This document shows, in pieces, positions 1 through 55,565 of a DNA stretch of 64,000 nucleotides. The notes beneath the pieces were generated by a model. That model was not told the DNA's origin. It saw only the letters and a program-made list of their open reading frames with translations, and searched no databases. The position numbers were made by a program, and so were the translations under genes. The DNA is from Alphaproteobacteria bacterium (GTDB lineage: Bacteria > Pseudomonadota > Alphaproteobacteria > Rs-D84): NCBI GenBank assembly GCA_017511715.1, contig JAFWJF010000007.1:6421-70420 (forward strand), read 5' to 3'. The first letter of the stretch is position 1, and every line of letters begins with the position of its first letter.

Positions 1-640
1 CAGCAATTTGTGCAGATTCTGCCAATGTCAATTCACGTGCACCATGCCCAAAAAGCATATTAGCCGCGGCATCAACACCACGCATTCCGCCGACCAACGA
101 CACCCTGTTCATATATAAATCTAGTATTTGATTTTTTGTAAATCTGTTTTCTAACCACATTGATAATATTAGTTCTTGAATTTTTCTGGAAATCTTTTTA
201 TCGCGGGACAAGAATATATTCTTTGCCGTCTGTTGCGTTATCGTCGACCCCCCCGCAGCAAAATGCCCATTAAACATATTAACAAATATTGCACGAATTG
301 TTCCACGATATGATATTGCACCATGCTTGAAAAAATTTTTGTCTTCGATTGCGACAATTGCCTGCCACACGTGTGGTGGTAAATTATCCACACTTACCGC
401 CGCGCCCATAATACGCCCGTCCGCCCTTATTTCGCGGCTATTTTTATCAAGGAATATTATCGCCGGTTCACGTGTTTCGTGCAACACAGAATCAAGTGAT
501 GGCATCTGTAAAAATACAAACAACACATATAAACCGCACAACGCGACCAAAATCAAGAACACGTTTATAAAGAAACCTAACAAGCGCGCCTTGAAGGAAC
601 GTTTCTTTTTCTGTTTTGTTTCTTCATAATCTTTCTGCAC
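1..640 (-). CDS. Penicillin-binding protein 1A-like, N-terminal transglycosylase part (5' partial in window; runs off left edge)
   Basis: Minus-strand translation contains N-terminal TM helix followed by glycosyltransferase-51 motifs (EDKNFFKHGAISYRG..., GGSTITQQ). Start GTG/ATG near 600-640 directly after ligA stop. Confidence 0.6.
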   Translation of the reverse strand, partial: MQKDYEETKQKKKRSFKARLLGFFINVFLILVALCGLYVLFVFLQMPSLDSVLHETREPAIIFLDKNSREIRADGRIMGAAVSVDNLPPHVWQAIVAIEDKNFFKHGAISYRGTIRAIFVNMFNGHFAAGGSTITQQTAKNIFLSRDKKISRKIQELILSMWLENRFTKNQILDLYMNRVSLVGGMRGVDAAANMLFGHGARELTLAESAQIA

Positions 641-649
641 CGTGGCCCC

Positions 650-2696
<2,047 letters not shown>

Positions 2697-2697
<1 letters not shown>

Positions 2698-3443
2698 TAT
2701 CTTAAAAAGAAAGTTATTGTCGAAACCACGCGAACACGTTTGTTGATTGCCTGACGTTCATTATCAGACCATGCATCAACTTGGTCGCGTGCAGAAATGC
2801 TAAAAGTACCCTGGTTCGCGGTTTTGATTTTGCCCAATGTAGTTCCAGCATCTTTTGCAAACTGTTCACCCGCGGCAGTTGCATTTTTTGTCGCTTCTTC
2901 TATCATTTTTATTTTTATATCGTTAAGCCCGTTAAAGACATAAATTGGACCGGCATAATCTTCGCTTACCGTCACACCTTGACGCACCAAATCGCCCATT
3001 TTACGCGAAACAGCATCAACCAAATTTACAGAATTCGAACGCACCATAACACCTGTTTCAACAACATATCTGTCGTTGCTGGCTTGGTCTTTTCTTTCTG
3101 CTTCGCTGTATCCGGCATATTTATCACGTACTGTGATACGCAGGTTCTGTAATTCGCTTTCTTCAAATCCATTATTAATCAAGAACTGACGGGTCTTTAC
3201 CAAATCAGAATCTACATCAGATTGAACCTTGGCTAAATCGCCCCCAACACGACTGAATTTAATGTTCCAAACCGCAGTATCAGCGACAACATCCATTTCT
3301 GCCAAGCCTTTGACAGTAACAGTTCGCGATGCCAATGATTTATAAACACCGTTACCAATAAAAAAACCACCCAGCGCAACACCAAACGCCATGATAACAA
3401 CCCAAACCGTTGGTAAATTTTTAAGTTTTTCTGATATTTTCAT
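2697..3443 (-). CDS. SIMPL/DUF541 family periplasmic protein (YggE-like)
   Basis: 248 aa, N-terminal signal/TM, sequence pattern typical of 26-kDa periplasmic immunogenic protein family. Confidence 0.65.
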
Positions 3444-3572
3444 CTTTTTCCCCCTTGTTTATTTTTTGATATGTCGATTATAAACCGGTAAAAAAATATT
3501 GCAAGTTTATAAAAATTATTTCTTGCAAAAAATCATGATTATTTTTATTCTGGTCCATGAAAGGAGTCAAAA

Positions 3573-4595
3573 ATGAAATGGACAATTTTATTAGCAATCA
3601 TCATAGCTTTCGGAATTTTAGGTTGTTTTTTTATTTCATGCAACAAATGGGATAACGTATTTCCAAAAAACCCAAATGTTATCACACAAAAGGTACATTT
3701 TCATAATCGATATGGAATTGAATTGGTTGGTGATTTATATATGCCAAAAAATAAATCTGCTGAAAAAATGCCAGCGATAGCAATATCTGGTCCGTTTGGT
3801 GCCGTTAAAGAACAATCATCCGGACTATACGCACAAGAAATGGCGGCGCGTGGTTTTATCACATTGGCTTTTGACCCATCGTTCACTGGCGAAAGTGGTG
3901 GCAAAGTTCGCTATGTCGCATCCCCAGATATAAATACCGAAGATTTTTCAGCGGCTGTTGATTATTTGGCAACCCGCAAAGATGTAGATGCAGAAAAAAT
4001 TGGTATAATTGGAATCTGTGGTTGGGGTGGCATGGCGATTAATGCTGCTGCCATGGATACACGTATCAAGGCGACTGTTGCGTCAACTATGTATGATATG
4101 ACCCGCATTTCTGCGAATGGCTATTATGATGTGGACGATAATGCCGATGCCCGTTTTGCAACTAAAAAGGCATTAAACGAACAACGCACCATCGATTATA
4201 AAAACGGCAAATACGATTTAGCAGGCGGTGTTGTTGACCCATTACCAGAAGATGCCCCGCAATTTGTAAAAGACTATTATGCTTATTATAAAACACCACG
4301 CGGTTACCATAAGCGTTCACTAAATTCTAATGGCGGGTGGAACAAGACAAGTTCTTTGTCATTTATCAACATGCCTATTTTACAGCGCGCTGATGAAATA
4401 CGCACACCTGTATTATTAGTTCATGGCGAAAACGCACACAGCCGTTATTTCAGCGAAGGCGCATTTGCAAAACTGACCGGCGACAACAAAGAATTGATGA
4501 TTATTCCTGGTGCAAGTCATGTTGATTTATATGACAATATGGAAAAAATACCTTTTGATAAAATGGAACAATTCTTTAAGATAAATTTGAAATAA
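3573..4595 (+). CDS. Alpha/beta hydrolase fold protein (membrane-anchored/secreted)
   Basis: 340 aa, N-terminal hydrophobic segment, nucleophile elbow G-x-C/S-x-G (GICGWGG) and HGxxD-like C-terminal motif; RBS aaaggag upstream. Confidence 0.7.
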   Translation: MKWTILLAIIIAFGILGCFFISCNKWDNVFPKNPNVITQKVHFHNRYGIELVGDLYMPKNKSAEKMPAIAISGPFGAVKEQSSGLYAQEMAARGFITLAFDPSFTGESGGKVRYVASPDINTEDFSAAVDYLATRKDVDAEKIGIIGICGWGGMAINAAAMDTRIKATVASTMYDMTRISANGYYDVDDNADARFATKKALNEQRTIDYKNGKYDLAGGVVDPLPEDAPQFVKDYYAYYKTPRGYHKRSLNSNGGWNKTSSLSFINMPILQRADEIRTPVLLVHGENAHSRYFSEGAFAKLTGDNKELMIIPGASHVDLYDNMEKIPFDKMEQFFKINLK

Positions 4596-4607
4596 AAAGA
4601 GTGTTAT

Positions 4608-5141
4608 ATGAAAAAATTATTGTTTATTTTATCGTTGTTTTTACCATTTGTGGCACATGCTGATAACGATAAAATCTTGGTTGCTTACTTCAGTGCAACT
4701 GGAAATACCGCAGAAGTTGCACAAAAATTGGCAACCGCAATAAATGCTGATTTATTTGAAATTGTGCCAGAACAACCATATACATCTGATGATTTAAATT
4801 GGCAAAACAATCAAAGTCGTACTTCGATTGAAATGGGCGACAAAAGTTCACGGCCACAAATCGCATCAAAAATCGAAGACATATCGCAATACAACATTGT
4901 CTTTGTGGGTTCACCAATCTGGTGGGGTCGCGAACCATCTATAATTGACACATTTATTGAAAGTTATAATTTTGCTGACAAAACAATTATACCTTTTGTC
5001 ACATCGGGCAGCAGTGATATCGGCGATTATGGGGCAAATTTACAAGCATTAGCGCCAGATGCAAAAGTATTAGTTGGTAAACGATTCCCAACAGATGTTT
5101 CCGCACAAGAACTTAAAATCTGGGCAGACGAACAAATGTAA
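4608..5141 (+). CDS. Flavodoxin-like protein with signal peptide
   Basis: 177 aa; cleavable signal (MKKLLFILSLFLPFVAHA) then flavodoxin FMN-binding start (LVAYFSATGNTAEVA). Confidence 0.7.
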   Translation: MKKLLFILSLFLPFVAHADNDKILVAYFSATGNTAEVAQKLATAINADLFEIVPEQPYTSDDLNWQNNQSRTSIEMGDKSSRPQIASKIEDISQYNIVFVGSPIWWGREPSIIDTFIESYNFADKTIIPFVTSGSSDIGDYGANLQALAPDAKVLVGKRFPTDVSAQELKIWADEQM

Positions 5142-5145
5142 AAAA

Positions 5146-5174
5146 TACCGCCACTTTGGGCGGTATTTTAATTT
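5146..5174 (+). terminator. Intrinsic terminator after flavodoxin gene
   Basis: Hairpin taccgccactttgggcggta followed by T-rich run. Confidence 0.55.
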
Positions 5175-5190
5175 ATGGGGCGGGTGACCT
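5174..5190 (-). repeat. Partial copy 1 of tRNA-His 3' end (tggggcgggtgacc)
   Basis: Exact match to the 3' acceptor/T-arm end of the downstream tRNA-His, followed by ctcgatacacaat. Confidence 0.7.
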
Positions 5191-5293
5191 GTTCTCGATA
5201 CACAATCTTCCAAGAGCGAGCTTTGTATGCTCGATTTTTAATCCTTGCTGACGCTGCGGTAAAAATCGGCATCGGGTGACCAGATTGCTTCGC

Positions 5294-5310
5294 TATGGGG
5301 CGGGTGACCC
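5294..5310 (-). repeat. Partial copy 2 of tRNA-His 3' end
   Basis: Second tggggcgggtgacc copy; a further fragment gggtgaccagatt at ~5273. Confidence 0.7.
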
Positions 5311-5397
5311 TTCCTCGATACACAATAACAAAAATTAAAAAAATTTCGTAAACTTCAATTTTTTAACATTTTTCTAATTGTGTATTCTCGTATTCGC
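5308..5397. mobile_element. Small IR-bounded MITE-like element (copy A), adjacent to tRNA-His 3' fragment
   Basis: ~90 bp bounded by imperfect inverted ends (cctcgatacacaataacaaaaat ... atttttctaattgtgtattctcgtatt). A near-identical element occurs at ~55388-55478 beside tRNA-Glu. Confidence 0.45.
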
Positions 5398-5544
5398 TCG
5401 GGCTTCGCCCTGTGCGGCATTCGTTAGCACTCGAACTTCGTTACACTCGTTCTCGCTTACTCATAGTCGAACTTTCAGTTCGCATCTGGTCACCTGTCTT
5501 AGTTAAATTAAAAAATGGGCCCTTCGGTCCATTTTTTGATTTAA

Positions 5545-5622
5545 TGGGGCGGGTGACCAGATTCGAACTGGCGACATTCGGTACCACAAACCGACGCTCT
5601 AACCAACTGAGCTACACCCGCC
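5545..5622 (-). tRNA. tRNA-His (anticodon GTG)
   Basis: Cloverleaf with anticodon loop TTGTGGT, extra 5' G(-1) pairing with discriminator C, T-loop GTTCGAATC, 3' CCA encoded. Confidence 0.85.
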
Positions 5623-5642
5623 ATAACTTTTGGGTAAAAACT

Positions 5643-5718
5643 TGGTGGAGCTGATCAGACTCGAACTGACGACCCCTTGCATGCCATGCAAGTGCTCTAC
5701 CAACTGAGCTACAACCCC
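5643..5718 (-). tRNA. tRNA-Ala (anticodon GGC)
   Basis: Acceptor GGGGTTG with G3:U70, anticodon stem CTTGC/GCAAG with loop ATGGCAT, TTCGAGT T-loop, CCA encoded. Confidence 0.85.
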
Positions 5719-5807
5719 ATGCGAGAAAGTATTTTATATTTCTTCTTGCAAAAAGTCAAATCATTTTGCTAACCTTTCTCTATCGAATATATCAACAGGA
5801 GTTTATT

Positions 5808-6368
5808 ATGGATTATTCATCACTGAAAACCGAAGTCGAACAAAAAACAGCCCAAACATTAGAAGTTTTACAAAATGCCTTCGCTGGCTTGCGCACCGGG
5901 CGTGCATCTGTGCATTTACTAGATGGTGTAAAAGTGCCTGTGTATGGCTCTGAAATGCCGCTTAATCAGGTTGCAACTGTTTCAACGCCAGATACTCAAA
6001 CATTATCTGTGACTGTTTGGGATGTTACCAATGCACCTGCTGTAGAAAAAGCGATTCGTGATTCAGGTTTGGGCTTAAATCCAATGACCGCGGGTGGTGT
6101 TATTCGTCTGAATCTGCCACCATTAACCGAAGAACGTCGTCGCGAATTAACAAAAGTTGCCGGAAAATATGCCGAAGAAGCCAAGATTTCCATGCGTAAC
6201 ATCCGTCAAGATGCGATGTCTAAAATCAAACGCGCCGTCACAGATAAAGAAATTTCTGAAGACGATCAGCGTAAATATGAAGAAGACATCCAAAAGGTCT
6301 TTGATGGACGCGGTGTTGAAGTTGATGCAATGGCGAAACAAAAAGAAGCCGATATTATGTCTGTTTAA
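5808..6368 (+). CDS. frr: Ribosome recycling factor
   Basis: 187 aa from ATG at 5808 (RBS aggag 7 nt upstream); conserved Frr sequence; first gene of frr-uppS-cdsA-rseP-bamA block. Confidence 0.95.
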   Translation: MDYSSLKTEVEQKTAQTLEVLQNAFAGLRTGRASVHLLDGVKVPVYGSEMPLNQVATVSTPDTQTLSVTVWDVTNAPAVEKAIRDSGLGLNPMTAGGVIRLNLPPLTEERRRELTKVAGKYAEEAKISMRNIRQDAMSKIKRAVTDKEISEDDQRKYEEDIQKVFDGRGVEVDAMAKQKEADIMSV

Positions 6369-6394
6369 TGCCAAGGACAAGGAAAGGATTTATA

Positions 6395-7150
6395 ATGTTT
6401 AATCTCTTCAAGAAAAAAAATGCAATCACAACCGATACGGCAAAAATACCACAACATATTGCTTTCATTTGTGATGGGAATCGGCGTTGGGCTGAAATGC
6501 GTGGTTTGCCCCCATTGATGGGACACCAAGCGGGCATTTCTAATTTCGAAAACTTGGTTGATTGGTTTATTGCACGCGGTGTTTCAACAATTACATTTTA
6601 TATATTTTCTACAGAAAATTGGAATCGGTCCCAAGAAGAAGTCGATTTTTTAATGAATCTTTTTTACACCGAACTTAACAAAAATATGAAGCATGCGATT
6701 GAAAAAAATTTACGCTATCGTATTTTGGGTTCACGCGACAGATTGCCTGTAAAACTGGCAAAAATGTGTGACAAATTGGAAGAAGCATCTGCAGAAAACA
6801 CTGGCGGAACGGTGGCTTTTGCATTGAATTATGGCGGGCAAGATGAAATTGTTCGCGCAGTAAATGCCGCGATTGAAAATGGGAAACCGGTTGATAAAGA
6901 ATCTTTTGAAACATTTATGGACACTGGTGATTTATTGCCTGTAGATTTGATGGTTCGCACAAGCAATGAAAACAGAATTTCTAATTTCTTGCTTTGGAAA
7001 CTGGCATATGCAGAATTGTTGTTCGTTCCAGAACATTGGCCCGATTTGGTAAAATCTGAAAAATTATGGCAACATGTTCTTGATGAATACCAGAAACGCA
7101 ATCGTCGTTTCGGCGGTGGTAAAAAGAAAAATTATTCGGGGAAAAAGTAA
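6395..7150 (+). CDS. uppS: Undecaprenyl-diphosphate synthase
   Basis: Starts MFNLFKKK; motifs IAFICDGNRRWA and ENWNRS typical of cis-prenyltransferases. Confidence 0.93.
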   Translation: MFNLFKKKNAITTDTAKIPQHIAFICDGNRRWAEMRGLPPLMGHQAGISNFENLVDWFIARGVSTITFYIFSTENWNRSQEEVDFLMNLFYTELNKNMKHAIEKNLRYRILGSRDRLPVKLAKMCDKLEEASAENTGGTVAFALNYGGQDEIVRAVNAAIENGKPVDKESFETFMDTGDLLPVDLMVRTSNENRISNFLLWKLAYAELLFVPEHWPDLVKSEKLWQHVLDEYQKRNRRFGGGKKKNYSGKK

Positions 7151-7151
7151 A

Positions 7152-7823
7152 ATGAAATTATCTGAATTATCTAATACAAGTTTGCGAATTTTGTCAGCGA
7201 TTGCTATGTTAGTGATATTGGCTGTCGTTGTCGCGTTGGAATATTATTTTCCACAGATTCGTGCGGTACGCTGGTTGGCGGTTCTGGTTATGATTGGTGC
7301 GATTTATGAAACAATAAAGAACTTCCGAAACGCGACCAATGAAACGTTCAATGCGCATGCTTTTTATTTCATCCTGTTTTTTGCATGGTTAATTTTAATG
7401 TTGGTTTCTGCTTACTTTGTTGGGGGTCGCCCATGGATTATGCTGTGGCTGTTAATGATTATAGTTGGTGCGGATGTCGGTGCATGGTTATTTGGCAAAA
7501 TATTTGGTGGCGATAAAATGTGGGAAAGATTATCTGCACATAAAACCTGGTCTGGTCAAATTGGTGGCATATTGTGTGGAACACTGATGTCCATCCTGTT
7601 CTTTATGTACATTAAACCATTTGGTAATGATATTGTTTTTGCGATATTGATGGGAATAAGCATGTCTTTGTTATCACAATACGGCGATTTAACCGCAAGT
7701 TTCACAAAAAGGTGTTTGGGCGTAAAAGATTTTGGCAACCTTATACCCGGACACGGTGGTATATTGGACAGATTCGATGGTTGGATATATATCCTGCCGT
7801 TGATGTGGTTTTTCATAGGATAA
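7152..7823 (+). CDS. cdsA: Phosphatidate cytidylyltransferase
   Basis: Multi-TM protein with C-terminal CTP-transferase motif GHGGILDRFDG; ATG at 7152 directly after uppS. Confidence 0.9.
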   Translation: MKLSELSNTSLRILSAIAMLVILAVVVALEYYFPQIRAVRWLAVLVMIGAIYETIKNFRNATNETFNAHAFYFILFFAWLILMLVSAYFVGGRPWIMLWLLMIIVGADVGAWLFGKIFGGDKMWERLSAHKTWSGQIGGILCGTLMSILFFMYIKPFGNDIVFAILMGISMSLLSQYGDLTASFTKRCLGVKDFGNLIPGHGGILDRFDGWIYILPLMWFFIG

Positions 7824-7836
7824 GAGGATTCAGATT

Positions 7837-8895
7837 ATGCACACTATTTTGACCGTTGTTGCATTGTTAATTGTTTTAGGCGTGGTTGTTTTCGTTCACG
7901 AAGCCGGACATTTTATGGCGGCGCGTTGGGCGGGCGTGCGCGTTGATGCGTTTTCTATTGGTTTTGGTCCTGCGCTTGTGAAATGGCACGATAAGCATAA
8001 TACGGTATGGAAATTGTGTGCCTTGCCTTTGGGTGGATATGTTTCTATCTATGGTCAAGAGGACATGTTCAACCGCAAAAAATATCAAGATTTACCAAAA
8101 GATAAAAAAGTCGGACATTACTTGTCTGTCCCTGCATGGAAACAGTTTATAATTATTGCCGCTGGTGTATTTATGAATTTTATGCTGGCTTGGGCGATTT
8201 ACAGTGCTGACTTCATGTTCCGACCACGCAATATCCAGTTGCCTGTTGTTGGTCAGGTTGTTCGTGACAGTGTTGCTTTTAATGCAGGTGTAAAGGCTGG
8301 CGATGTCATAATGAAAATAGACGGGGAAAATATTTCTAATTGGGGTGAATTGATTATCGCCAAAGAATTAGCCGATAAACACGATGCACATGTTTTAATC
8401 GCCCGCAAAGACAGATTGATAAATGTCACACTGATACCGGCAGAACGTTGGGGGCTGATTGCAGACGGCAGCAAAACCATGTTCCGCAACAAGGGTTTCT
8501 TTGGCGCAATTTATTCGGGCTTACGTGAAACATACCATCAATCAAAAACTTTGTTAATCGTGTTGAAACAAATTGTGACGGGGGAACGCTCTTCTAAACA
8601 ACTTGGGTCGTTTATCACTATTGCCCAGGTTTCTGGTCATGCTTTGGAAGCAGGCTTCTTCATTTTCTTGTCGATAATCGCGTTAATTTCTGTGAATTTA
8701 GCGGTTATAAACTTGTTGCCCCTGCCCGTTCTGGATGGTGGCTATTTACTGATTTTGATTATAGAAGCTATCACGCGCCGCAAACTGGGTGGTAAGGCAA
8801 TGGAGATAACTATTGTTATCGGTTGGATTTTAATCCTGTTGTTGTTCGCATTTACTATGTGGAACGATATCGCACGCGTATTTGGTATAAACTAA
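7837..8895 (+). CDS. rseP: RIP zinc metalloprotease RseP
   Basis: 352 aa, HEAGHF zinc motif in TM1, PDZ-like middle, LDGG motif. Confidence 0.92.
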   Translation: MHTILTVVALLIVLGVVVFVHEAGHFMAARWAGVRVDAFSIGFGPALVKWHDKHNTVWKLCALPLGGYVSIYGQEDMFNRKKYQDLPKDKKVGHYLSVPAWKQFIIIAAGVFMNFMLAWAIYSADFMFRPRNIQLPVVGQVVRDSVAFNAGVKAGDVIMKIDGENISNWGELIIAKELADKHDAHVLIARKDRLINVTLIPAERWGLIADGSKTMFRNKGFFGAIYSGLRETYHQSKTLLIVLKQIVTGERSSKQLGSFITIAQVSGHALEAGFFIFLSIIALISVNLAVINLLPLPVLDGGYLLILIIEAITRRKLGGKAMEITIVIGWILILLLFAFTMWNDIARVFGIN

Positions 8896-8906
8896 GAGGT
8901 GTTAAT

Positions 8907-9134
8907 ATGAAACCAAATATTTATAATGTAGAAGCTGGAACAAATATAAGAGAAGCCGTAGAACGTGCTATTTTAGTTGCGCGCGCAAAAAATGCCCCAA
9001 CAATTGTACAATTTAACGGTGCACGTTTCTGTGTTAACCCAGACACAACTTGTCAGGAAGCTATCGACACATACCTTGAAGTAAAGAGAAAAATGTTTGA
9101 AACGGAAAAATTATTGAAACAAAAAACAAAATAA
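8907..9134 (+). CDS. Small hypothetical protein (75 aa) between rseP and bamA
   Basis: ATG with RBS gagg; no recognisable family; conserved position suggests co-transcription with bamA. Confidence 0.4.
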   Translation: MKPNIYNVEAGTNIREAVERAILVARAKNAPTIVQFNGARFCVNPDTTCQEAIDTYLEVKRKMFETEKLLKQKTK

Positions 9135-9139
9135 TAAAA

Positions 9140-11413
9140 ATGAAAAGCAAATCGTTGAAAATTCTACCCTTATTACCTGCTGTGTTTGTTGGCACGGCGA
9201 ATGGTGCCGTTGTTTCGCGCATTGACGTTAATGGTAATCAGCGCATGGATGCGGAATCTGTCCGTATTTTAGCCAACGTAAAAACAGGCGATAATGTCAA
9301 TTCTGAACACATAAACAATATCGCGAAAGATTTACAAGCCAGTGGTTATTTCGAGAAAGTCAATGTACAACTTAATGGGAACGTATTAAAAATAGACCTT
9401 GTTGAATCACCTGTTGTTAATATGGTAACTGTCGAAGGCAACGATGAAATTGATACCGATGACTTGAAAAAAGAAATAAAGACGAAAGAACGCACTTCCT
9501 ATGATAAATCTACGATTGGCGCGGATGTTCAACGAATGCTAACTCTTTATCAGCGCAAAGGTTTCTTTGGCACTAAAATTAATCCTAAAAGAATCGAATT
9601 AGACAACAATCGCGTAAATGTTGTATTTGAAATAACAGAAGGACATCCGACCTATATCAGCGACATTGATTTTGAGAACAACAAAAAGTTTCGTTCCAGA
9701 ACATTACGCAAGGAACTGTTATCGCGTGAACATGCATGGTGGCGTTTCATGACGCAATTTGATGTTTATGACGAAGACCGTATTCAATACGACCAACAAT
9801 TATTACATCAATTTTATATGCGCAATGGCTTCCTTGATTTTCGTATAACAGACGTTAAAGGCGAATTCACAGATACCAGGGAATATTATTCTGTAAAATA
9901 TACAGTTGATGAAGGCAATCAATATAAAATTGGCGAAGTTACAATCGACAACCCTTTTTCCGATGTACCTGATAAAGAATTAAAGCGTGCTTTGACAATA
10001 TCGAAAAAGGATGTGTACAATATTGATGAAATTGATGCAACAATAACCGCATTGCGGGGCAAAGTTGCAGACCATGGATACGCGTTTATAAGTATTGAAC
10101 CAATACCAACAAAACACGATGATACGCGCACTGTTGATATTAACTTCAAGATTCAGAAAACCAATCGCATATATATAAACAGCATCAATTTGCTGGGCAA
10201 TGTTCGTACTTTTGACAGTGTGATTGAACATCATCTGCCTATGCGCGAAGGCGATCCTTTTTCATTACAAACGATTGAAACAGGTCGTCAAAATTTAATG
10301 CACACGCGTTATTTCAAGGATGTTCAAATGGTGCCAAATCGTATGGCAGATGCGAATATGATGAATCTTGATGTAAAGGTTGAAGAACAACCAACAGGCG
10401 AATTGTCTGGTGGTCTGGGCTGGTCAACAATCAATGGGTTTATGGTTGACGCAGGTATCACAGAAAACAATTTTATGGGTCGTGGTCAAATTGTCCAGAT
10501 AAAAGGTTCTATCGCACAATATCAACGGCAGGCCTTGTTTAGTTTTACAGAACCATTCCTTTTTAATCGTGAATTATCCGGTGGTTTTGATGTTTCTTAT
10601 ACACAATACCAATATTCTAAACTTGGCGGTTATGGATATGATCGTGATTCTTTTTCTGTATCTGGCCGGCTTGGTTGGCGTTTAACAGACCATTGGACCC
10701 AGACGATGCGCCTTTCTGCAACATTCGACCAAAACTATGACTTGAATTTAGGTGGCTGGCAAAAGGCAAATCTTTACACACTTGGGACTAATCTGCGTTA
10801 TTATAACCTGAATACAAATTTCCAACAGAATACACATACTGGTCTTGTTGGCAATATAGGCGTGGCATATACAGGCTTTGGCAGCACAAATACATTTATG
10901 CGATATAACGCGGACATCACAGGGCTTGTTAAATTCTTTGATGACAGATGGCAATTCCGCACAGGTTGGGAATTTGGATATTTACAATCATTGGAAAGTA
11001 ATGACTATATACCGCGTGTTTATCGATATTTCCTTGGTGGCGAGACTTTGCGTGGTTTTGATGTTGCAGGTGTTGGTTCGCGTAATTGGTATTATCGTTC
11101 TTATTCTTTGGGCGGACTTTGGAAACTTAACGGTTCGACCCAGATTAATTTCCCGATATTTATACCAGACGAATATCAAATCAAAGGTTTCATATTTGCA
11201 GATTATGGTATTTTAGGACGCCCACCAAAGCAAGAATACGAATTTTATGGCAAACCAAATATAATCGACCAAGATTGGCGCACATCGGCGGGCTTTGGTA
11301 TTTACTGGAATACACCAATGGGGCCGATGAACTTTTCGTGGGGTTGGCCGTTGCATCTTAATAAATATGATGACGAACGCAGATTCTTGTTATCGTTTGC
11401 GACACAATTCTAA
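9140..11413 (+). CDS. bamA: Outer membrane protein assembly factor BamA
   Basis: 757 aa, signal peptide, POTRA repeats then C-terminal beta-barrel ending in aromatic residue (ATQF). Confidence 0.95.
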   Translation: MKSKSLKILPLLPAVFVGTANGAVVSRIDVNGNQRMDAESVRILANVKTGDNVNSEHINNIAKDLQASGYFEKVNVQLNGNVLKIDLVESPVVNMVTVEGNDEIDTDDLKKEIKTKERTSYDKSTIGADVQRMLTLYQRKGFFGTKINPKRIELDNNRVNVVFEITEGHPTYISDIDFENNKKFRSRTLRKELLSREHAWWRFMTQFDVYDEDRIQYDQQLLHQFYMRNGFLDFRITDVKGEFTDTREYYSVKYTVDEGNQYKIGEVTIDNPFSDVPDKELKRALTISKKDVYNIDEIDATITALRGKVADHGYAFISIEPIPTKHDDTRTVDINFKIQKTNRIYINSINLLGNVRTFDSVIEHHLPMREGDPFSLQTIETGRQNLMHTRYFKDVQMVPNRMADANMMNLDVKVEEQPTGELSGGLGWSTINGFMVDAGITENNFMGRGQIVQIKGSIAQYQRQALFSFTEPFLFNRELSGGFDVSYTQYQYSKLGGYGYDRDSFSVSGRLGWRLTDHWTQTMRLSATFDQNYDLNLGGWQKANLYTLGTNLRYYNLNTNFQQNTHTGLVGNIGVAYTGFGSTNTFMRYNADITGLVKFFDDRWQFRTGWEFGYLQSLESNDYIPRVYRYFLGGETLRGFDVAGVGSRNWYYRSYSLGGLWKLNGSTQINFPIFIPDEYQIKGFIFADYGILGRPPKQEYEFYGKPNIIDQDWRTSAGFGIYWNTPMGPMNFSWGWPLHLNKYDDERRFLLSFATQF

Positions 11414-11477
11414 GATTGTTTTGGCTTGACGTGGGGGATGAATTTTTCTTATACTTTTAGAAAAGAAAGGAGAAGAC

Positions 11478-11633
11478 ATGAAAAAAATTTTAGCGATATT
11501 AGCATTGGTAATCGTCGGGTTCTCTTTGGCAGGTTGTGGTCAGATTTATGATGCCGAACCGGTCAGCATTGGCTATGATAACAATGAATTGAAATTAAGC
11601 CCATGCGCATGCATATTGGTATATCGTGCTTAA
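11478..11633 (+). CDS. Small lipoprotein (51 aa), VirB7-like by size and position (tentative)
   Basis: RBS aaggag, lipobox LAGC, sits immediately upstream of a VirB8-like gene. Confidence 0.4.
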   Translation: MKKILAILALVIVGFSLAGCGQIYDAEPVSIGYDNNELKLSPCACILVYRA

Positions 11634-11658
11634 AGCATTATGTTTGTAGGGGGAATGA

Positions 11659-12354
11659 TTGAATTATCCAAATGATTTTGATATAAAATCATTTCCTGCG
11701 GGCAAGACAATCGCACTTTCCCGCAGTGTTTCGATATGGATTTCAATTGTTTTCTTTTTAATTGTTGCCGCATGCGGTTTTATCTTATTTGGCATACACT
11801 ATAAACAAAATTATCCGTTTTTAATATCTGTTGATCCGTTTACGAACGATTGGAATGTTGTGACGTATCCTGGCAAGAACAAAAAGGAAACACTGCAACA
11901 ATACCAAATTGTCCAGGAAAAACTAGTTCGCGATTTTGTGACAAATTGGTTTACAATCACAGGCAATTCACAACAAGACGAACAGCGTTGGCAATCATGT
12001 GATGCCGAAGGTTGTATGGCAAGTGAACAATTTAATCCAGACAATATAAAATGTGCATTGTCTTGCAAATCTGCCCCGGCTGTGTTTGATGAATTTTACA
12101 AAAACGTATTGCCAGATTATCGTTCTTATGCTGGCGCGTCGGGCAAATGGTCTGTTGAACGCATGCTTATCACACCAAATAATGTGAATCAAAAATCTGG
12201 CACTTGGCAGGTTGTGGTATCAATTCAACCTGCTATGTCTGCGCCTTTTGATGCGTTGGTGTTTATTACGATTGAACAAGACCAAAACAAATATCCTGCA
12301 ACTTTGGGGTATTATATAACAACCTTTAATTCGTACAGAATAATAAATGAATAA
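11659..12354 (+). CDS. VirB8-like bitopic membrane protein (NTF2-like periplasmic domain)
   Basis: TTG start with AGGGGG RBS; single N-terminal TM helix; periplasmic part aligns by eye with VirB8 (KQNYPF-ISVD..., ends ...GYYITTFNSYRI like ...GFQVMSYRV). Confidence 0.45.
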   Translation: MNYPNDFDIKSFPAGKTIALSRSVSIWISIVFFLIVAACGFILFGIHYKQNYPFLISVDPFTNDWNVVTYPGKNKKETLQQYQIVQEKLVRDFVTNWFTITGNSQQDEQRWQSCDAEGCMASEQFNPDNIKCALSCKSAPAVFDEFYKNVLPDYRSYAGASGKWSVERMLITPNNVNQKSGTWQVVVSIQPAMSAPFDALVFITIEQDQNKYPATLGYYITTFNSYRIINE

Positions 12355-41413: not shown

Positions 41414-41588
41414 CAACCCACGCACAACAAACACCGCCCATTCCCGGGCGGTTTTTGATTCTGCGAACCTAAAATTCCCCGCCTGGGGCGGGGGGGACCA
41501 CGAAGTGGTGGGGAGGGTTGCCAATAAATATTGTGTATCAAGAACCTCCCTCCCGTCCTTACGGACGGACTCCCCCCAAGGGGAGAAT

Positions 41589-41612
41589 CAAAAATTCCCC
41601 GCTCCGGGCGGG
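41589..41612 (-). terminator. Terminator hairpin for zapA (ccccgcccggagcgggg + U-run on minus strand); a second similar hairpin at ~41478-41500
   Basis: GC-rich inverted repeats followed by aattttt on minus strand. Confidence 0.45.
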
Positions 41613-41613
41613 G

Positions 41614-41892
41614 TTATGAAATCTTGTGCTTAATCTCACGAATGCGGGCTAATATTTCACGCAAATCTTCGTCTGAAACTGTCGGGGTTTGGTTTTTATT
41701 CTGAATTTCATCAACTAAAACTATACAGAGCGTTGCAAGCAAAGCATTTTCTTGTAATGGCCCTATTTTATCCAAAATCTGACGTGCGCGGGCATCGACT
41801 ATGCGCCCCAGCTCGATAAGGCGTCCTTCCTGGCCGTCTTCACAGCCCATCGGATAATTGCGATTAACAATAGGTATTGAAACTACACTCAT
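41614..41892 (-). CDS. zapA: Cell division protein ZapA
   Basis: 92 aa; N-terminal VSIPIVNRNYPMGCEDGQEGRLIELGRIVDARARQI fits ZapA pattern. Confidence 0.65.
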   Translation of the reverse strand: MSVVSIPIVNRNYPMGCEDGQEGRLIELGRIVDARARQILDKIGPLQENALLATLCIVLVDEIQNKNQTPTVSDEDLREILARIREIKHKIS

Positions 41893-49034: not shown

Positions 49035-50726
49035 TTAGAACAATTTGAATTTATAATTTGTCCCGGCGCGGAATGCCACCTGGGTTTTATCACCAGATGC
49101 GATGCCGGCACCTGCATTGACAGACCATCTGTCAGACAAGCCCATAGCCGCACCGAACGCCATTGCTGATTGGCTGTTATAATAACCATAACCACCACCA
49201 ACAGAAACTTCGCCTTTCTTTACATTAGACACTGCAACAGAAGACAATGCGGTCGCTGCCGCAACACCACCAGACAAATTCTTTTCCAGTGTATTGACTT
49301 TCGCATCTGTATAAGAATTGGCTTTCTTTAATGTTAACGCATCTGCATCAGCGATGCTTGCATTTATTTGTTGTTGCAATTGTTGGTCGGCATTTGCGCG
49401 TGCGCTTGCTTCATCAGTAATTGCCTGTTCTAATTCTGTGTCTTTTGCTTCGCGTGCGCTTGCTTCATCAGTAATTGCCTGTTGCAATTCTGTGTCTTTT
49501 GCTTCACGTGCGCTTGCTTCATCAGTAATTGCCTGTTGCAATTCTGTGTCTTTTGCTTCGCGTGCGCTTGCTTCATCATTAAGCGCAGAACTATCTGCCT
49601 TTAATGCCAATGCCGCATCAACATCTGCAACATTTGCTTTGCCACTAATATCTTGGTGTTCTGTCAAGAATTTAGCATCAGCATCTGCTTTGCTATAGAC
49701 ATCGTCGACATTTGCTTTATCATCCAACGCTGTCTTGATAGTTCCAGAAGCGACAGAAGCTTCAATGGCGTCATTTGCATGCGTATCAATTGTTTCTTCG
49801 ATTGGTGCATTAAATATATCTTTTGCTGCATTCAACGCATCATCGTTTTCGCTGTATGCTTCTTTCGCCGCCTGTTGATTTGCCTGTGCTGTTTCCAACA
49901 AACCAGCAGCTGTTTCATAAGAATTCCAATAACCGTTCAATTCTTCGACTTTGTTGCTGTCGGTTGTAAAGGCCGCATCTGCAGTTGCAAAATTTGCCTG
50001 TTCTGTTGTCCACTGGTCAGCAGTAGTTGTTTTTGCGCTATCAACACTTGCAACATCGTTCGCGTATGCTGTTTTCATCGCATCAAACGCATCTGCCAAT
50101 GCCGAACCAGGTTCTGGTTCACCTGCTGGTGTGTTATTGCTGTGATACAACGCTGTTCCATCAGCAGACAAATGGTATGTATCATCACCATCCATTGTAA
50201 CACTGTACAATGTGCCATCAAAAGAATCAGCCGTTCCGTTTGTCACAACTATTTCTGCGCCGTTGGTATAATCAGAATTTAATGTGACGGTTTGTGTCAT
50301 ATCTTGTGCAGAAGTGCCCAATTCGACATCATCGCCTGCGCCGTTGGTATAAGTATAATTGCCACGTTCAACTGTTGCCCCGGAAACGATTTCTTGTGTT
50401 GTCGAAACCACACCAGATGCGGCTGTATCGCCAGTAAAATCACCTTGTTCTTTTGTGCCAGACGACAAATCTGCAGGATTTCCATCTTTATCTGTGTATG
50501 TAAAATCTTCCAATGTTGGGTCTGTTGTTTGATTCGCTACATCGCGTGTTGTGCCGTCTGATTTTTCATACGAATAAGTTTGTGCCGCGACAGCATCATT
50601 GACATTTACTGTATCGCCGTTTGAATTGGTATAATCACCAGCAAACGTAACATCTGTTGCTGCATTTGCTCCGGCGACAGTCGCCATAATAGCCACAACA
50701 GAAGTCAAAATTAAATTTTTCTTCAT
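49035..50726 (-). CDS. Trimeric autotransporter adhesin (YadA-like anchor) with tandem 20-aa stalk repeats
   Basis: Signal peptide MKKNLILTSVVAIMATVAGANA; 3.5 tandem repeats (TDEASAREAKDTELQQAI); C-terminal YadA-like membrane anchor ending FKLF. Confidence 0.7.
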   Translation of the reverse strand: MKKNLILTSVVAIMATVAGANAATDVTFAGDYTNSNGDTVNVNDAVAAQTYSYEKSDGTTRDVANQTTDPTLEDFTYTDKDGNPADLSSGTKEQGDFTGDTAASGVVSTTQEIVSGATVERGNYTYTNGAGDDVELGTSAQDMTQTVTLNSDYTNGAEIVVTNGTADSFDGTLYSVTMDGDDTYHLSADGTALYHSNNTPAGEPEPGSALADAFDAMKTAYANDVASVDSAKTTTADQWTTEQANFATADAAFTTDSNKVEELNGYWNSYETAAGLLETAQANQQAAKEAYSENDDALNAAKDIFNAPIEETIDTHANDAIEASVASGTIKTALDDKANVDDVYSKADADAKFLTEHQDISGKANVADVDAALALKADSSALNDEASAREAKDTELQQAITDEASAREAKDTELQQAITDEASAREAKDTELEQAITDEASARANADQQLQQQINASIADADALTLKKANSYTDAKVNTLEKNLSGGVAAATALSSVAVSNVKKGEVSVGGGYGYYNSQSAMAFGAAMGLSDRWSVNAGAGIASGDKTQVAFRAGTNYKFKLF

Positions 50727-50784
50727 TTTGTTTCCTTTTTTTATTTTTAATATTAAAAACCGAGATTGTATAACCTCGAAATAA

Positions 50785-50812
50785 ATGGTACAAAAACCAA
50801 GGTTTTTTAACC
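50785..50812. promoter_or_regulatory. hix-like recombination site (left): ggtacAAAAACC-AA-GGTTTTTTaacc
   Basis: Core AAAACCAAGGTTTTT identical to Salmonella hixL core (TTCTTGAAAACCAAGGTTTTTGATAA); coordinates approximate (+/-3). Confidence 0.6.
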
Positions 50813-50892
50813 GCCACTTCAACGACATCTAACAAAACGCGCTTTTTCACTGTTTTCTGGGAAAAAATTACTAAATAAAAATTTATAAAAAC

Positions 50893-50920: not shown

Positions 50921-51011
50921 AGACCTCTTGACATATTGAAAAAAAGAACTAAATATCCTGATGTAAACAGGCTTTTGCCTGTTTTTTTATTTGATAAAAA
51001 AAGGAGAATTT

Positions 51012-51608
51012 ATGATTTACGGATATTGCCGTGTTTCTACTGCACATCAACACGAAGAAAACCAACATTTTGTCATAGAAAACTTCGCAAAAAACAACAA
51101 TATGACTATCGATGTTTGGATAGAAGAAAAAATTTCAAGCAATAAAAAATTACAAGACAGAAAACTGGGGACTCTGTTAAACAAACTTGAATCTGGCGAT
51201 ATTTTAATAACAACAGAAATCTCGCGTCTTGGGCGCAGCCTATTGGAAGTCATGGGAATTTTACAGAATTGTCTTGAAAAAAATTGCCAGATTTGGACAT
51301 TGAAAGAAAATTTTCGCCTGGGGGCAGATATTCAATCAAAAGTTTTAGCTTTTGCATTTGGCCTGTCTGCAGAATTATCAAAATCTTTATTGCAAGAACG
51401 CGTTCGCGAAAGTTTGGCACGACTGAAAGCCAGCGGAAAAAAACTTGGACGCCCAATCGGTGCAAAATCAAAAAAATTGAAGTTAAGTAAAAATAAAAAA
51501 AGAATAACCTTTTTGGTAAACAAAGGTTTAAGCAAAAACGAAATCGCGCGCATCATGCATGTTAACAAAAGTACTCTTTACAATTATTTGCGAAATAATT
51601 ATATGTAA
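51012..51608 (+). CDS. Serine recombinase, Hin/Gin/Pin-type DNA invertase
   Basis: Starts MIYGYCRVSTAHQ (catalytic Ser in YxRVST motif), ~198 aa, C-terminal HTH (LSKNEIARIMHVNKSTLYNYL), RBS aaggag. Confidence 0.85.
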   Translation: MIYGYCRVSTAHQHEENQHFVIENFAKNNNMTIDVWIEEKISSNKKLQDRKLGTLLNKLESGDILITTEISRLGRSLLEVMGILQNCLEKNCQIWTLKENFRLGADIQSKVLAFAFGLSAELSKSLLQERVRESLARLKASGKKLGRPIGAKSKKLKLSKNKKRITFLVNKGLSKNEIARIMHVNKSTLYNYLRNNYM

Positions 51609-52729: not shown

Positions 52730-53263
52730 TCAGTATGCATTGGTTCTTTTTGTCCATCCGTTTTTCGCGGTTTCCCAGTTTCGCGTATTTCGTAAATAGT
52801 CAATTCTTTCAGACTTGATTGTTGACATAAATTCTTCAATCTTTGTATCTGGAATCGAATTTATAGCTTTGATTGTTTCTTTGCCTATGACGCCATCAAC
52901 TTTTAAATTTGCATCAGAGAAAGAGTTTATTGCTCTCTGAACAACTTTTCCTGCGCCACCCATAACGTTCATATCAAATACCGCATTACGTATTCTATCA
53001 TTTTCTATTTGCGGTATTCTTGTATTATCCCAGTATTCACTCTTATATATCTCTTTTGCGTGGTATTCTTTTAAATCTTTTACATCCTGCGGAAAATTTT
53101 TATCTGGGTATTTCGCAGAATATTTATCCAAAGTACTTTGTTTTATCCCCATGTTGGTTGCTTCATCTTTTTTCTGGTTTTTGCCAGTTGTATATCCGCC
53201 TTCGCGTTCTTTCAAATTATTATATGCTTGATTGAATTTTTTAGTGTCGTCACTCATTTTCAT
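52730..53263 (-). CDS. GH108-type lysozyme-like protein with peptidoglycan-binding C-terminal region
   Basis: N-terminal EREGGYTTGKNQKKDEATNMGI matches the EGGY...D.GG.T..GI signature of glycoside hydrolase family 108. Confidence 0.6.
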   Translation of the reverse strand: MKMSDDTKKFNQAYNNLKEREGGYTTGKNQKKDEATNMGIKQSTLDKYSAKYPDKNFPQDVKDLKEYHAKEIYKSEYWDNTRIPQIENDRIRNAVFDMNVMGGAGKVVQRAINSFSDANLKVDGVIGKETIKAINSIPDTKIEEFMSTIKSERIDYLRNTRNWETAKNGWTKRTNAY

Positions 53264-53277: not shown

Positions 53278-53502
53278 TTATATCTGTTTTATTTTCTGGC
53301 TTTTGACCTTTGTACGGTTTGCTTGAAATTGTTCATAGGTCATATCGTATTCTGGTTCGATATATTGACCAGTTGCGTCTTTTTGTAATTGTTCTGGGAA
53401 CAAAGTTCCCAGATATTCATTTGCTTTTGCAAATTCGGTGCTATTTTTATCCCAATAATTATTAGATTGTAATAAATTGCGTAAAAATTTTGGTGTTTGC
53501 AT
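53278..53502 (-). CDS. Small hypothetical protein upstream of GH108 gene (74 aa from internal Met)
   Basis: Table ORF 53278..53589; Met at 53502 preferred because the upstream part is hydrophobic low-complexity. Confidence 0.3.
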   Translation of the reverse strand: MQTPKFLRNLLQSNNYWDKNSTEFAKANEYLGTLFPEQLQKDATGQYIEPEYDMTYEQFQANRTKVKSQKIKQI

Positions 53503-53635
53503 TATAACTTCTTTGTTAAATAAAAAAAAGCCCACACGTGATGGGATAAAATAAGAAAAGACAGCGAATGCTGTCTTATTAAGTTGCAATTATTATATCA
53601 TAAATCGCATAAAAAAGCAATACCCAAAAATCCTG

Positions 53636-55247: not shown

Positions 55248-55364
55248 TTAAAAAGTTCGTAAATGTGTAAAACTGTGGATGTTTTCAACACCTAACTTAC
55301 GAACTCACACCAATAACGAAAATCAAAAAAATCTCCGTCTGTCGATTTTTTAAGATTTTCTTAA

Positions 55365-55384
55365 TTGCCCCACTCGGATTTTTT
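55365..55384 (-). repeat. Partial copy of tRNA-Glu 3' end (gccccactcggattt)
   Basis: Matches the 3' end of downstream tRNA-Glu and abuts the MITE-like element; inverted T-arm fragment (atcccggttcaaatccggg) at ~55503-55523. Confidence 0.6.
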
Positions 55385-55387
55385 ACT

Positions 55388-55478
55388 CGCCTCCTCGATA
55401 CGCAATAACAAAAATCTATAAAAACTCGTCATAACAGACCCCGTTTTTATGATTTTTCTAATTGTGTATTCTCGTATT
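55388..55478. mobile_element. Small IR-bounded MITE-like element (copy B), adjacent to tRNA-Glu 3' fragment
   Basis: cctcgatacgcaataacaaaaat ... atttttctaattgtgtattctcgtatt; same ends as copy A at 5308-5397. Confidence 0.45.
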
Positions 55479-55565
55479 GGTCGTGCGCTTCGCTCCGACC
55501 TATCCCGGTTCAAATCCGGGGGTTGAACAAAAATTAAAACCACCCGTTTGGGTGGTTTGAATTTT

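Follow-up and report, generated by a model that had tools for sequence, protein, structure and literature searches.

The tRNA-His locus of Candidatus Enterousia, an uncultured alphaproteobacterium of gut and rumen, carries several additional pieces of the 3' end of its own tRNA. We analyzed this locus within a 64-kb stretch of genomic DNA (the window) and favor, by a modest margin over doubt, the explanation that the extra pieces represent junction repeats belonging to two to three short, structured, non-coding elements, arranged in tandem or nested in each other, which would be non-autonomous and insert at tRNA 3' ends. The elements, which we call units, belong to a multicopy family found in one orientation, with bodies common to different tRNA loci and ends cognate to the local tRNA. 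Members of this family sit directly after tRNA genes, on their 3' side, in Candidatus Enterousia and in gut and rumen bacteria related to it. Repeats of tRNA 3' ends are usually read as the footprints of big mobile islands; here they would mark tiny gene-less structured elements specialised for many tRNA 3' ends.

Nucleotides 64 to 77 of tRNA-His correspond, as their reverse complement, to the plus-strand 14-mer TGGGGCGGGTGACC, which occurs exactly at positions 5176, 5296, and 5545, its three occurrences in the whole window. When up to two mismatches were allowed, 0.11 matches were expected by chance, and three or more matches were reached in 0 of 100 shuffles. A previous description made from the letters of this DNA, the sequence-only reading, had located these copies at about 5174, about 5294, and 5545; the first two values are the starts of a 33-nt repeat, TATGGGGCGGGTGACCnnTTCnTCGATACACAAT (5174 to 5206 and 5294 to 5326, with 91% identity between both copies), and thus hold to within 2 nt. 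The further fragment that it had seen near 5273 was recovered as an exact 14-nt match to tRNA-His nucleotides 59 to 72 (CGGGTGACCAGATT, 5273 to 5286). An inverted piece exists as well, with 11 nt exact at 5484 to 5494 and 18 of 19 nt matching across 5477 to 5495, and its distance to the tRNA is about 50 bp, not the 60 bp given before. Since three independent assemblies (ENA ERZ28655009, Logan SRR12529293, and ENA ERZ14209544) are identical over this sequence, the repeats are no assembly artifact. A tandem duplication of a 120-bp block was considered and rejected, because the intervals are unrelated beyond the 33-nt repeat. All tRNA-His copies together bound 370 bp of non-coding DNA (5176 to 5545). 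The sole open reading frame (ORF) of at least 60 codons touching these 370 bp (5412 to 5654, 80 amino acids, GTG start) runs antisense across tRNA-His and is not credible as a gene.

We compared the locus with a related set of 80 species loci (loci are designated by L-numbers). The order tRNA-His, tRNA-Ala, frr was kept in most of them, while everything 3' of tRNA-His was variable. Fifty-two Enterousia-type frr loci carry tRNA-His, and in 20 of these 52, the tRNA-His 3' end was repeated downstream on the same strand in one to three partial copies, a few hundred nucleotides away and at most about 0.5 kb. An exact 19-nt copy, spanning nucleotides 59 to 77 from the T-loop to the CCA, was found in 11 species. 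The acceptor and T stems of tRNA-His vary by species, and each of the five 19-mer variants is that of its own species' tRNA. The DNA between tRNA-His and the repeat falls into few conserved types, named a, b, and c, and many related species are without any unit after tRNA-His. Rather than being identical and invariant in relatives, the repeats differ in number (zero to three) and in content between related species, and they are therefore no fixed structural feature.

Read in the direction of the tRNA, a unit is laid out as a terminator, an inverted copy (INV) that covers at most the final 18 nt of the cognate tRNA, the body, a direct copy running from the T-loop to the CCA (DIR), and a terminator. 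Units are gene-less and measure about 90 to 200 bp. The array behind tRNA-His is dissected in Table 1. The 3' part of tRNA-His, terminator A, and INV together make up an imperfect palindrome centered on terminator A, the 39-nt arms of which show 74% complementarity. Terminator B stands after the distal copy as terminator A stands after the gene, and it also ends the flavodoxin gene on the opposite strand. The body of unit 1, whose long hairpin P3 has its arms at 5376 to 5394 and 5313 to 5326, is homologous to bodies lying 3' of His, Glu, Gln, Pro, Arg, Ser, and Tyr tRNAs. Next to it, the tail fragment assigned to a type b unit can be compared with the type b tail of four other loci (L015, L008, L018, and L059), which reads GCAAGGGAGCGAAGC followed by AATCTGG. 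The mini unit consists of a hairpin, GATTTTTA..TTAAAAATC, and a short P3 base, GAGCATACAA..TTGTGTATCGAG, and is flanked by the 9-nt repeat GGTCACCCG. Deleting the mini unit together with one GGTCACCCG flank restores a perfect 19-nt repeat, AATCTGGTCACCCGCCCCA, and DIR3 is part of this older repeat, which the mini unit splits. A promoter-like sequence, TTGACT-17-TAAAAT, lies upstream of tRNA-Ala at 5731 to 5759.

Table 1. Features of the tRNA-His and tRNA-Glu loci and of the neighboring genes in the window
Feature	Position	Strand	Basis or remark
alpha/beta hydrolase	3573-4595	+	
Flavodoxin_4 protein, signal-like N-terminus	4608-5141	+	
Terminator hairpin B, AAAATACCGCC-CAAAG-TGGCGGTATTTT	5140-5169	.	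strand unassigned
DIR2, distal direct copy of tRNA-His nt 64-77	5176-5189	-	
Mini unit, 83 nt	5190-5272	-	inside 19-nt repeat
DIR3, direct copy of tRNA-His nt 59-72, AATCTGGTCACCCG	5273-5286	-	
tagcgaagc, leftover of type b unit 3' tail	5287-5295	-	
DIR1, direct copy of tRNA-His nt 64-77, GGTCACCCGCCCCA	5296-5309	-	
Unit 1 body, "a-long", CTATGAGTAAGCGAG..., 157 nt	5310-5466	-	with AT-rich hairpin P3
Small hairpin gcGAACTgaaAGTTCGA ending in T-loop-like GTTCGA	5467-5483	-	left junction of unit body
INV, inverted tRNA-His 3' part, ggtgaccagat	5484-5494	-	sequence match; predicted pairing with 5273-5286
Terminator hairpin A, AAAAAATGGACC-GAAG-GGCCCATTTTTT	5510-5537	-	directly 3' of tRNA-His
tRNA-His(GTG), CCA encoded; reference copy of the repeated 3' end	5545-5621	-	ARAGORN, Rfam; 3' end at 5545
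tRNA-Ala(GGC), same operon, upstream of tRNA-His	5643-5718	-	ARAGORN, Rfam
Palindromic insert CAATTAAG...TTATTGGT, 59 nt	55309-55367	-	cuts tRNA-Glu direct copy
Second family copy, 3' of tRNA-Glu	55367-55565	-	
Direct tRNA-Glu end copy AATCCGAGTGGGGC	55367-55380	-	
tRNA-Glu element hairpin P3	55393-55478	-	
tRNA-Glu element helix P2	55479-55501	-	
Inverted tRNA-Glu T-arm copy	55502-55518	-	
tRNA-Glu element terminator	55529-55565	-	
tRNA-Glu	55566-55640	-	

The right end of the window's units, ATTGTGTATCGAGRA, was found again 3' of tRNA-Glu, and the window holds two loci of the family, at tRNA-His and at tRNA-Glu. An exact search with the 22-nt core of P3 retrieved 99 metagenome stretches, and the same search of IMG/VR viral contigs gave 0 matches. 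In about 62 of 103 P3-core instances, a tRNA gene of the same orientation was present upstream at a distance below 600 nt, namely, Glu (13), Gln(ttg) (11), His (8), Pro (6), Arg (6), Gln(ctg) (5), Ser with three anticodons (10), and Tyr (3). The remaining instances were mostly truncated by the contig, accompanied by a tRNA-end fragment alone, or spurious AT-rich matches. Overall, the family is present behind at least 10 kinds of tRNA gene.

The ends of the units match the tRNA next to which they lie, having been copied from it or kept identical to it. Of the 56 distinct instances linked to a tRNA, 38 have at least 10 nt of the cognate tRNA as a direct copy, compared to 9 of 473 non-cognate comparisons; for an inverted copy of the same minimal length, the values were 37 of 56 and 24 of 473. 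In 27 of 40 cases, the distance between the inner end of this copy and the 3' end of the tRNA was exactly 18 nt. Every unit regularly includes an inverted copy of its cognate tRNA end, which is not incidental. The bodies themselves are shared: the 81-nt P3 hairpin was 100% identical behind Glu, His, and Pro tRNAs, and the terminator flanks are alike across different tRNA loci. The spacer from body to direct copy is variable (3 to 8 nt), and the direct copy, 11 to 23 nt long, is often truncated. Longer forms carry the 5' half of the T stem and TTCGA before the body and AAT with the 3' half of the T stem after it, which corresponds to the T-loop of a partial tRNA copy interrupted between nucleotides 58 and 59.

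Some loci depart from this layout. Behind one tRNA-His (L180, 711 to 1093), a His-type inverted copy is combined with a tRNA-Glu-type direct copy, implying a recombinant of elements from different tRNA loci and hence chromosomal rearrangement via the repeats. In four other loci (L087, L095, L144, and L162), a conserved sequence, ...CAGCTCGTGAATTGCACAGATGGCCCTGCCA, with a tRNA-3'-like end precedes a terminator and, by about 120 nt, a unit; it was not called as a tRNA by ARAGORN and may be a degenerate or unusual RNA gene. In the window, at 41470 to 41620, a G/C-rich pair, AAAATTCCCCGCCTGGGGCGGGG ... AAAATTCCCCGCTCCGGGCGGGG, surrounds ATTGTGTATCAAGAA (41530), which is the right-end motif of the units with 1 mismatch, and a motif similar to ATTGTGTATCAAGAA occurs in L135.

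We then asked of the unit bodies, extracted with nhmmer and MAFFT, whether their structure is conserved. Type b (14 copies, mostly at His and one at Pro) folds as a three-way junction, the 16 pairs of which are 98.2% paired, with changes on both sides in 9 pairs. Its covariation score was 0.505 compared to 0.147 for shuffled alignments; 0 of 500 shuffles scored as high, and slid controls collapsed. A conserved G.U pair lies on the tRNA-sense strand. In type a (26 copies, seven kinds of tRNA), compensatory changes were found in 4 of the 5 pairs of helix P2, and the long hairpin P3 was almost invariant. The CGAG that flanks P3 was considered as a target duplication and is more simply explained as part of the helix, with tandem G.A pairs. 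In the predicted fold of the window array, INV is paired with DIR3, at -90 kcal/mol compared to -73 kcal/mol for shuffled sequences (z = -3.4). A search of Rfam 15 (E of 1 or below) with window positions 1 to 12000 and with L011, L015, L020, and L059 returned nothing but tRNAs, and there were no promoter-like sites inside the units. Selection on secondary structure, which neither protein-binding att arms nor random deletion remnants would be expected to show, indicates either an RNA or DNA folded as a single strand.

Comparison of filled and empty sites bears on whether the units move. Relative to the empty loci L042, L024, and L025, L033 has gained 146 nt, made of 94 nt of unique sequence and an exact 52-nt repeat that corresponds to tRNA nucleotides 59 to 77 plus the terminator; the flanking repeats thus measure 52 nt there versus 9 nt around the mini unit of the window. 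In L136, the terminators on either side of the unit are identical. The arrangement of a mini unit nested in an older repeat recurs in L008 and L018. At tRNA-Glu, the palindromic insert (59 to 67 nt) is found in the window and in L151, and not at the same position in L090. Taken together, filled and empty sites and nesting show that insertion happens. Contigs of several assemblies end at unit loci, as is usual for repeats. The repeats interrupt metagenome assemblies at tRNA loci, and island finders based on att sites can misread them as island boundaries.

Other changes at the same locus concern genes. Distances within the locus vary greatly. Between tRNA-His and tRNA-Ala, L055 has a gene assigned by eye as cysteinyl-tRNA-synthetase-like (5493 to 7025), and a Tad4-like (anti-Thoeris) protein is encoded there in L051 (6864 to 7535). 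A coiled-coil ORF of about 400 amino acids separates tRNA-Ala from frr in five species (L017, L025, L026, L035, and L036), and tRNA-His is inverted in L016, L060, L069, and L070. Directly after the CCA of tRNA-His, a 79-amino-acid GIY-YIG nuclease ORF was found in L016 (7374 to 7613) and L040 (7291 to 7527). It takes the place of the terminator and the left part of the unit, and L061 has the ORF at 7310 to 7546. In L016, an exact 19-nt direct repeat follows, so that the ORF lies between gene and repeat, and in L040, just a truncated remnant of a unit is left after it.

How the units might insert can be sketched. In the model of the mechanism that we prefer, while rating its chance clearly below even, units would integrate at the T-loop between nucleotides 58 and 59 and bring their own copy of tRNA nucleotides 59 to 77 together with a terminator. 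A unit would enter at TTCGA/AAT of the T-loop and would supply or duplicate the 3' part of the tRNA and the terminator, so that the tRNA stays intact. The old 3' end would be pushed downstream as a direct copy, and successive events would leave a row of tRNA-end copies. By analogy, the attachment site would probably be the imperfect palindrome of tRNA 3' part, terminator, and inverted tRNA 3' part, folded as a hairpin like an integron attC site or the attP of CTX phage, on which a putative enzyme would act in trans; through the inverted copy the incoming tRNA end would become part of this hairpin, and repeated exchange between gene and units would keep the copies identical within a genome. The model accounts for the way in which direct and inverted copies alternate, for bodies that all point the same way, for a boundary that does not shift, and for arrays in which the youngest unit lies closest to the gene.

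Several observations weigh against our interpretation. No recombinase, transposase, or nuclease tied to the units was found. A six-frame scan for tyrosine-recombinase motifs over about 1.7 Mb of loci and the window yielded solely XerC/D-like proteins (L034 and L051), and serine recombinases are merely sporadic near units. The strong covariation would equally be expected of a functional RNA gene. The hairpin-site model, itself drawn by analogy, would hardly explain how one body gains ends cognate to a new tRNA, and it leaves the long forms, with the T-stem 5' half and TTCGA before the body, unexplained. Additionally, unit-free L009 carries the window's proximal terminator A, and insertion after the terminator therefore fits at least as well as insertion into the T-loop. 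Finally, all evidence is drawn from metagenome-assembled sequence.

The genes beside the array had been proposed to be the surviving cargo of an integrated island. The gene order is ligA, SIMPL, alpha/beta hydrolase, Flavodoxin_4 (with a signal-peptide-like N terminus), the tRNAs, and frr-uppS-cdsA-rseP-bamA, and the identities described earlier for the SIMPL, hydrolase, and signal-peptide flavodoxin genes hold. Their role as cargo does not. The hydrolase and flavodoxin genes (3573 to 5141) lie beyond the distal repeat (5176), and since no tRNA-His fragment of at least 9 nt occurs across 2600 to 5175, no pair of repeats encloses the hydrolase, flavodoxin, or SIMPL gene. GC content stays level at about 0.40, and none of the three genes shows a compositional anomaly. 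Identity to relatives at the locus is 93% for the hydrolase (L009) and 85% for the flavodoxin (L011), and ligA, SIMPL, and frr have diverged about equally in those genomes. Between SIMPL and tRNA-His, L008 and L015 have neither gene, L009 has the hydrolase, L011 has the flavodoxin and other genes, and other genes are present in L010. This pattern fits vertical descent accompanied by differential loss, rather than recent delivery by repeat-bounded DNA. The region from 3573 to 5141 is a variable neighborhood that is not flanked by repeats, and hydrolase and flavodoxin would not be cargo of the elements.

We weighed four other explanations of the repeats. The reading put forward before, att scars left by conventional islands or prophages that used tyrosine integrases at the tRNA-His 3' end and were mostly deleted, seems improbable to us. 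Direct repeats of a tRNA 3' end starting from the T-loop are the textbook signature of integration, the gene content from SIMPL to tRNA-His differs among close relatives, and in other species phage-like and defense-related genes, for Mu-F/lysozyme, Tad4-like, and GIY-YIG proteins, occupy the hotspot. The genes supposed to survive from such an island are, however, outside all repeat pairs, with no repeat between SIMPL and hydrolase, and they have diverged as their core neighbors have; there is neither a compositional signal nor an integrase remnant. On the latter point the earlier statement that no integrase remains was borne out, as no integrase gene or pseudogene lies in 5176 to 5545 and the motif scan of the window and loci agrees. 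The scar reading also leaves the regular inverted copy unexplained, and the enclosed DNA is a conserved, covarying family present at many tRNA loci, which is unlike random deletion remnants. What stands of it is that variable direct repeats downstream of the tRNA are related to insertion; what falls is the decayed island, because the DNA that they enclose belongs to an intact conserved family. An explanation that needs no mobility machinery at all, by template-switch (snap-back) tandem-inversion duplications at the terminator palindrome and T-arm, followed by unrelated miniature inverted-repeat transposable elements (MITEs), is unlikely as well, if a little less so. Copy, terminator palindrome, inverted copy, and copy do form an inverted triplication with hairpin junctions, as in the tandem inversion duplication model, and independent palindromic inserts do exist as filled versus empty sites. 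Sporadic errors of this kind would, however, hardly generate the fixed 18-nt abutment at at least 10 kinds of tRNA in many genomes, nor similar terminator flanks across tRNA loci. Template switching at short inverted repeats is documented to give inverted triplications (PMC11790251).

Insertion by single-strand HUH transposition of the IS200/IS605 type, with miniature elements entering 3' of TTCGA and possibly serving as RNA guides, is about as improbable as island scars. The exact position of several body types between TTCGA and AAT-T-stem of a partial tRNA copy speaks for it, as do hairpins close to both ends; the T-loop cut point 18 to 19 nt before the terminator hairpin recalls the geometry of IS608, and body, tRNA match of 11 to 23 nt, and terminator follow each other in a way that resembles a scaffold-guide layout. 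No tnpA/tnpB-like ORF was noticed among the inspected ORFs, and those selected for a Pfam scan had no match to these families, with no profile search across the loci; neither an IS605-type nor any other RNA family was matched in Rfam. The variable spacer and the frequent truncation of the copy do not suit such a mechanism, nor do terminal hairpins that are unlike each other, and it does not explain why the upstream tRNA is intact, with its end duplicated, or why there is an inverted copy. Least probable, in our estimate, are functional small RNA (sRNA) genes or 3' modules of tRNA operons, in which the tRNA-derived ends would form a closing helix needed for folding or processing of the RNA, the number of copies would change through ordinary duplication and loss, and mobility would be incidental. 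Compensatory covariation in several helices, the G.U pair conserved on the tRNA-sense strand, the pairing of inverted and direct copies in the predicted fold, and the terminator after each unit would all be in agreement with this. Yet units stand behind a terminator without an internal promoter-like site, they are often cut short or nested, or else recombined (as in L180), many related species are without them, and identical bodies occur at different tRNAs with target-specific ends. The inverted copy, moreover, often pairs even with the CCA, unlike a tRNA mimic, and on the same ground a tmRNA or tRNA-mimic RNA was rejected. Three further candidates were also set aside. A retron non-coding RNA has a similar architecture (a1/a2 repeats, small hairpins, and one long hairpin), and there is no linked reverse transcriptase. 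For a retrovirus-style 18-nt primer-binding site, the coincidence with the position between nucleotides 58 and 59 is striking, but a terminator lies between tRNA and INV and there is no reverse transcriptase. A classical attP palindrome of a large serine recombinase predicts adjacent inverted and direct copies, which were not observed.

Non-autonomous elements that insert at tRNA 3' ends, our preferred explanation, can be set beside known systems. The nearest documented case is that of the ssrA islands of Dehalococcoides, which integrate midway through the T-loop with 20-bp direct repeats, accrete in tandem, include some units without recombinase genes, carry a large (DsiB) and a small (DsiA) serine recombinase by attL, and are suspected to include cis-mobilizable units (PMC3146451). 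As in those islands, a repeat of about 20 bp extends to the 3' end of an RNA gene and units follow in tandem downstream, and a large serine recombinase pair or single gene on the opposite strand abuts tRNA-His in two sister species (L023 and L030). In contrast to those islands, which are of kilobase scale, the present units are gene-less and of about 90 to 200 bp, one family of bodies is found at at least 10 tRNAs with matched ends, there is an extra inverted copy, and helices covary. Like cis-mobilizable elements (CIMEs), they have att-type repeats on both sides and no recombination genes inside. With integron attC sites and the sites of CTX-type phages (integrative mobile elements exploiting Xer, IMEX), they share alternating direct and inverted core copies, a single orientation, and an imperfect palindrome of about 90 to 100 nt at unit boundaries, also at other tRNAs, with a proposed crossover at the hairpin base. 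Unlike integrons, however, they lack an IntI-type integrase, attI, and a Pc promoter, the cassettes would be non-coding, and there is no dif-like sequence; the stems are tRNA sequence and differ with each tRNA, so that there is no common protein-binding arm, and single-strand recombination would be suggested by analogy. No IntI-like motif came up in the tyrosine-recombinase motif scan of the loci and the window.

Similarly, the units are short, non-coding, multicopy, and hairpin-rich like MITEs, REP/BIME/REPIN sequences, Correia elements, and Rickettsia palindromic elements, and they have nested insertions, filled versus empty sites, and assembly breaks in common with MITE families. They differ from these in their strict association with tRNA 3' ends in one orientation and in terminal repeats that copy the target tRNA instead of a transposase-binding end, and no partner transposase is known. 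The fixed short target (TTCGA), the subterminal hairpins, and a structured region joined to flank-derived sequence resemble IS200/IS605, its miniature derivatives, and TnpB guide RNAs, whereas the duplication of the tRNA end and the inverted copy are foreign to that family, and no RNA family matches. Tandem inversion duplications and origin-dependent inverted-repeat amplification likewise produce a direct-inverted-direct triplication with junctions at short palindromes, but not at a scale of tens of nucleotides, recurring at many tRNAs and always joined to the same body family. The units thus differ from every family considered in their size, the regular inverted copy, the sharing of bodies with matched ends, and the covarying structure. 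As non-autonomous repeat elements targeted to tRNA ends they would be of a known kind, with an unusual architecture; a limited search of the searchable literature gave no description of such elements. The tRNA-His locus alone is ordinary-looking, and it is the family behind it that would surprise specialists of mobile DNA. If insertion into the T-loop and rebuilding of the tRNA by a hairpin are true, they would represent a new use, by mobile DNA, of biology's most conserved motif as a landing pad, and they would explain why tRNA flanks are hotspots of rearrangement and gene turnover in gut bacteria with reduced genomes.

In the search for an enzyme and for parent elements, blastn of 5140 to 5545 against phage and plasmid collections gave no match, and tblastn across all loci with the small serine recombinase of the window, the large serine recombinase of L030, and the GIY-YIG protein revealed no systematic association with units. 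The large serine recombinase genes (Resolvase and Recombinase domains) that abut tRNA-His are convergent with it, as a tandem pair in L023 (4790 to 6214 and 6268 to 7728) and as a single gene in L030 (250 to 1710). Their junction is an GTTCGAAC half-site (GGTTCGAACTTA) about 85 nt after tRNA-His, not the T-loop, and no distal tRNA-His repeat was found within 7.7 kb. Four other loci (L017, L021, L028, and L044) diverge at the GGTTCGAACTTA half-site. The arrangement in L023 and L030 resembles the CcrAB and DsiAB integration modules. The small serine recombinase of the window (Resolvase and HTH_7 domains, 205 amino acids, 50991 to 51608, plus strand), a GH108 lysozyme (52730 to 53263, minus strand), and a short ORF homologous to the N terminus of a Mu-F/lysozyme protein (53278 to 53589, minus strand) all lie 2 to 4 kb from the tRNA-Glu element; the Mu-F/lysozyme protein adjoins tRNA-His in L020-type species. 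In L100 (9020 to 10060) and L114 (1614 to 2654), both on the minus strand, an RVT_1 reverse transcriptase with an N terminus like that of diversity-generating retroelements (DGR) ends right where a displaced unit has its direct copy, which is of tRNA-Ser type; this unit lacks an upstream tRNA. The gene looks DGR-like and is convergent with the displaced unit, and this adjacency may be due to chance.

A second type of repeat was found near the tRNA-Glu element. It is a 52-bp site, AGTTCG[TA]AAGT-N30-A[CT]TT[TA]CGAACT, with 10-bp terminal inverted repeats and a co-change of A-T to T-A at positions 13/52, and its window copy lies at 55254 to 55305 (minus strand). The site is present in 33 loci (e.g., L178, L111, L090, L172, L176, L153, L162, L147, L108, and L151), often as same-orientation arrays 3' of tRNA genes. 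The intervals between sites, of about 0.3 to 2.4 kb and mostly 0.6 to 1.4 kb, usually contain one small gene in either orientation. Several of these genes likely encode GNAT acetyltransferases (two confirmed by Pfam) and one an ART-PolyVal protein (Pfam); methyltransferase-like, peptidase, and lipoprotein-like products were assigned by eye. Overall, the arrangement has the appearance of tRNA-anchored cassette arrays. A broader and rather doubtful reading would join both types of repeat: a hitherto undescribed cassette or insertion system would dock on the universally conserved T-loop (GTTCGAAT, between nucleotides 58 and 59), the hairpin carried by each unit would be the site of recombination and would also supply the spare part for restoring the tRNA, and the polar single-gene cassette arrays at the 52-bp GTTCGWA...TWCGAAC sites would be a second product of the same machinery. 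If true, this would be an integron-like platform anchored on tRNA genes, with an enzyme that is possibly structure-specific.

The tRNA-Glu/Asp/Leu cluster of the window is flanked on one side by a gene for a 1642-amino-acid, internally repetitive, Cys/Thr-rich putative surface protein (56214 to 61142, minus strand) and on the other by a gene for a 597-amino-acid protein with tandem DEASAREAKDTELQQAIT repeats (49035 to 50828, minus strand).

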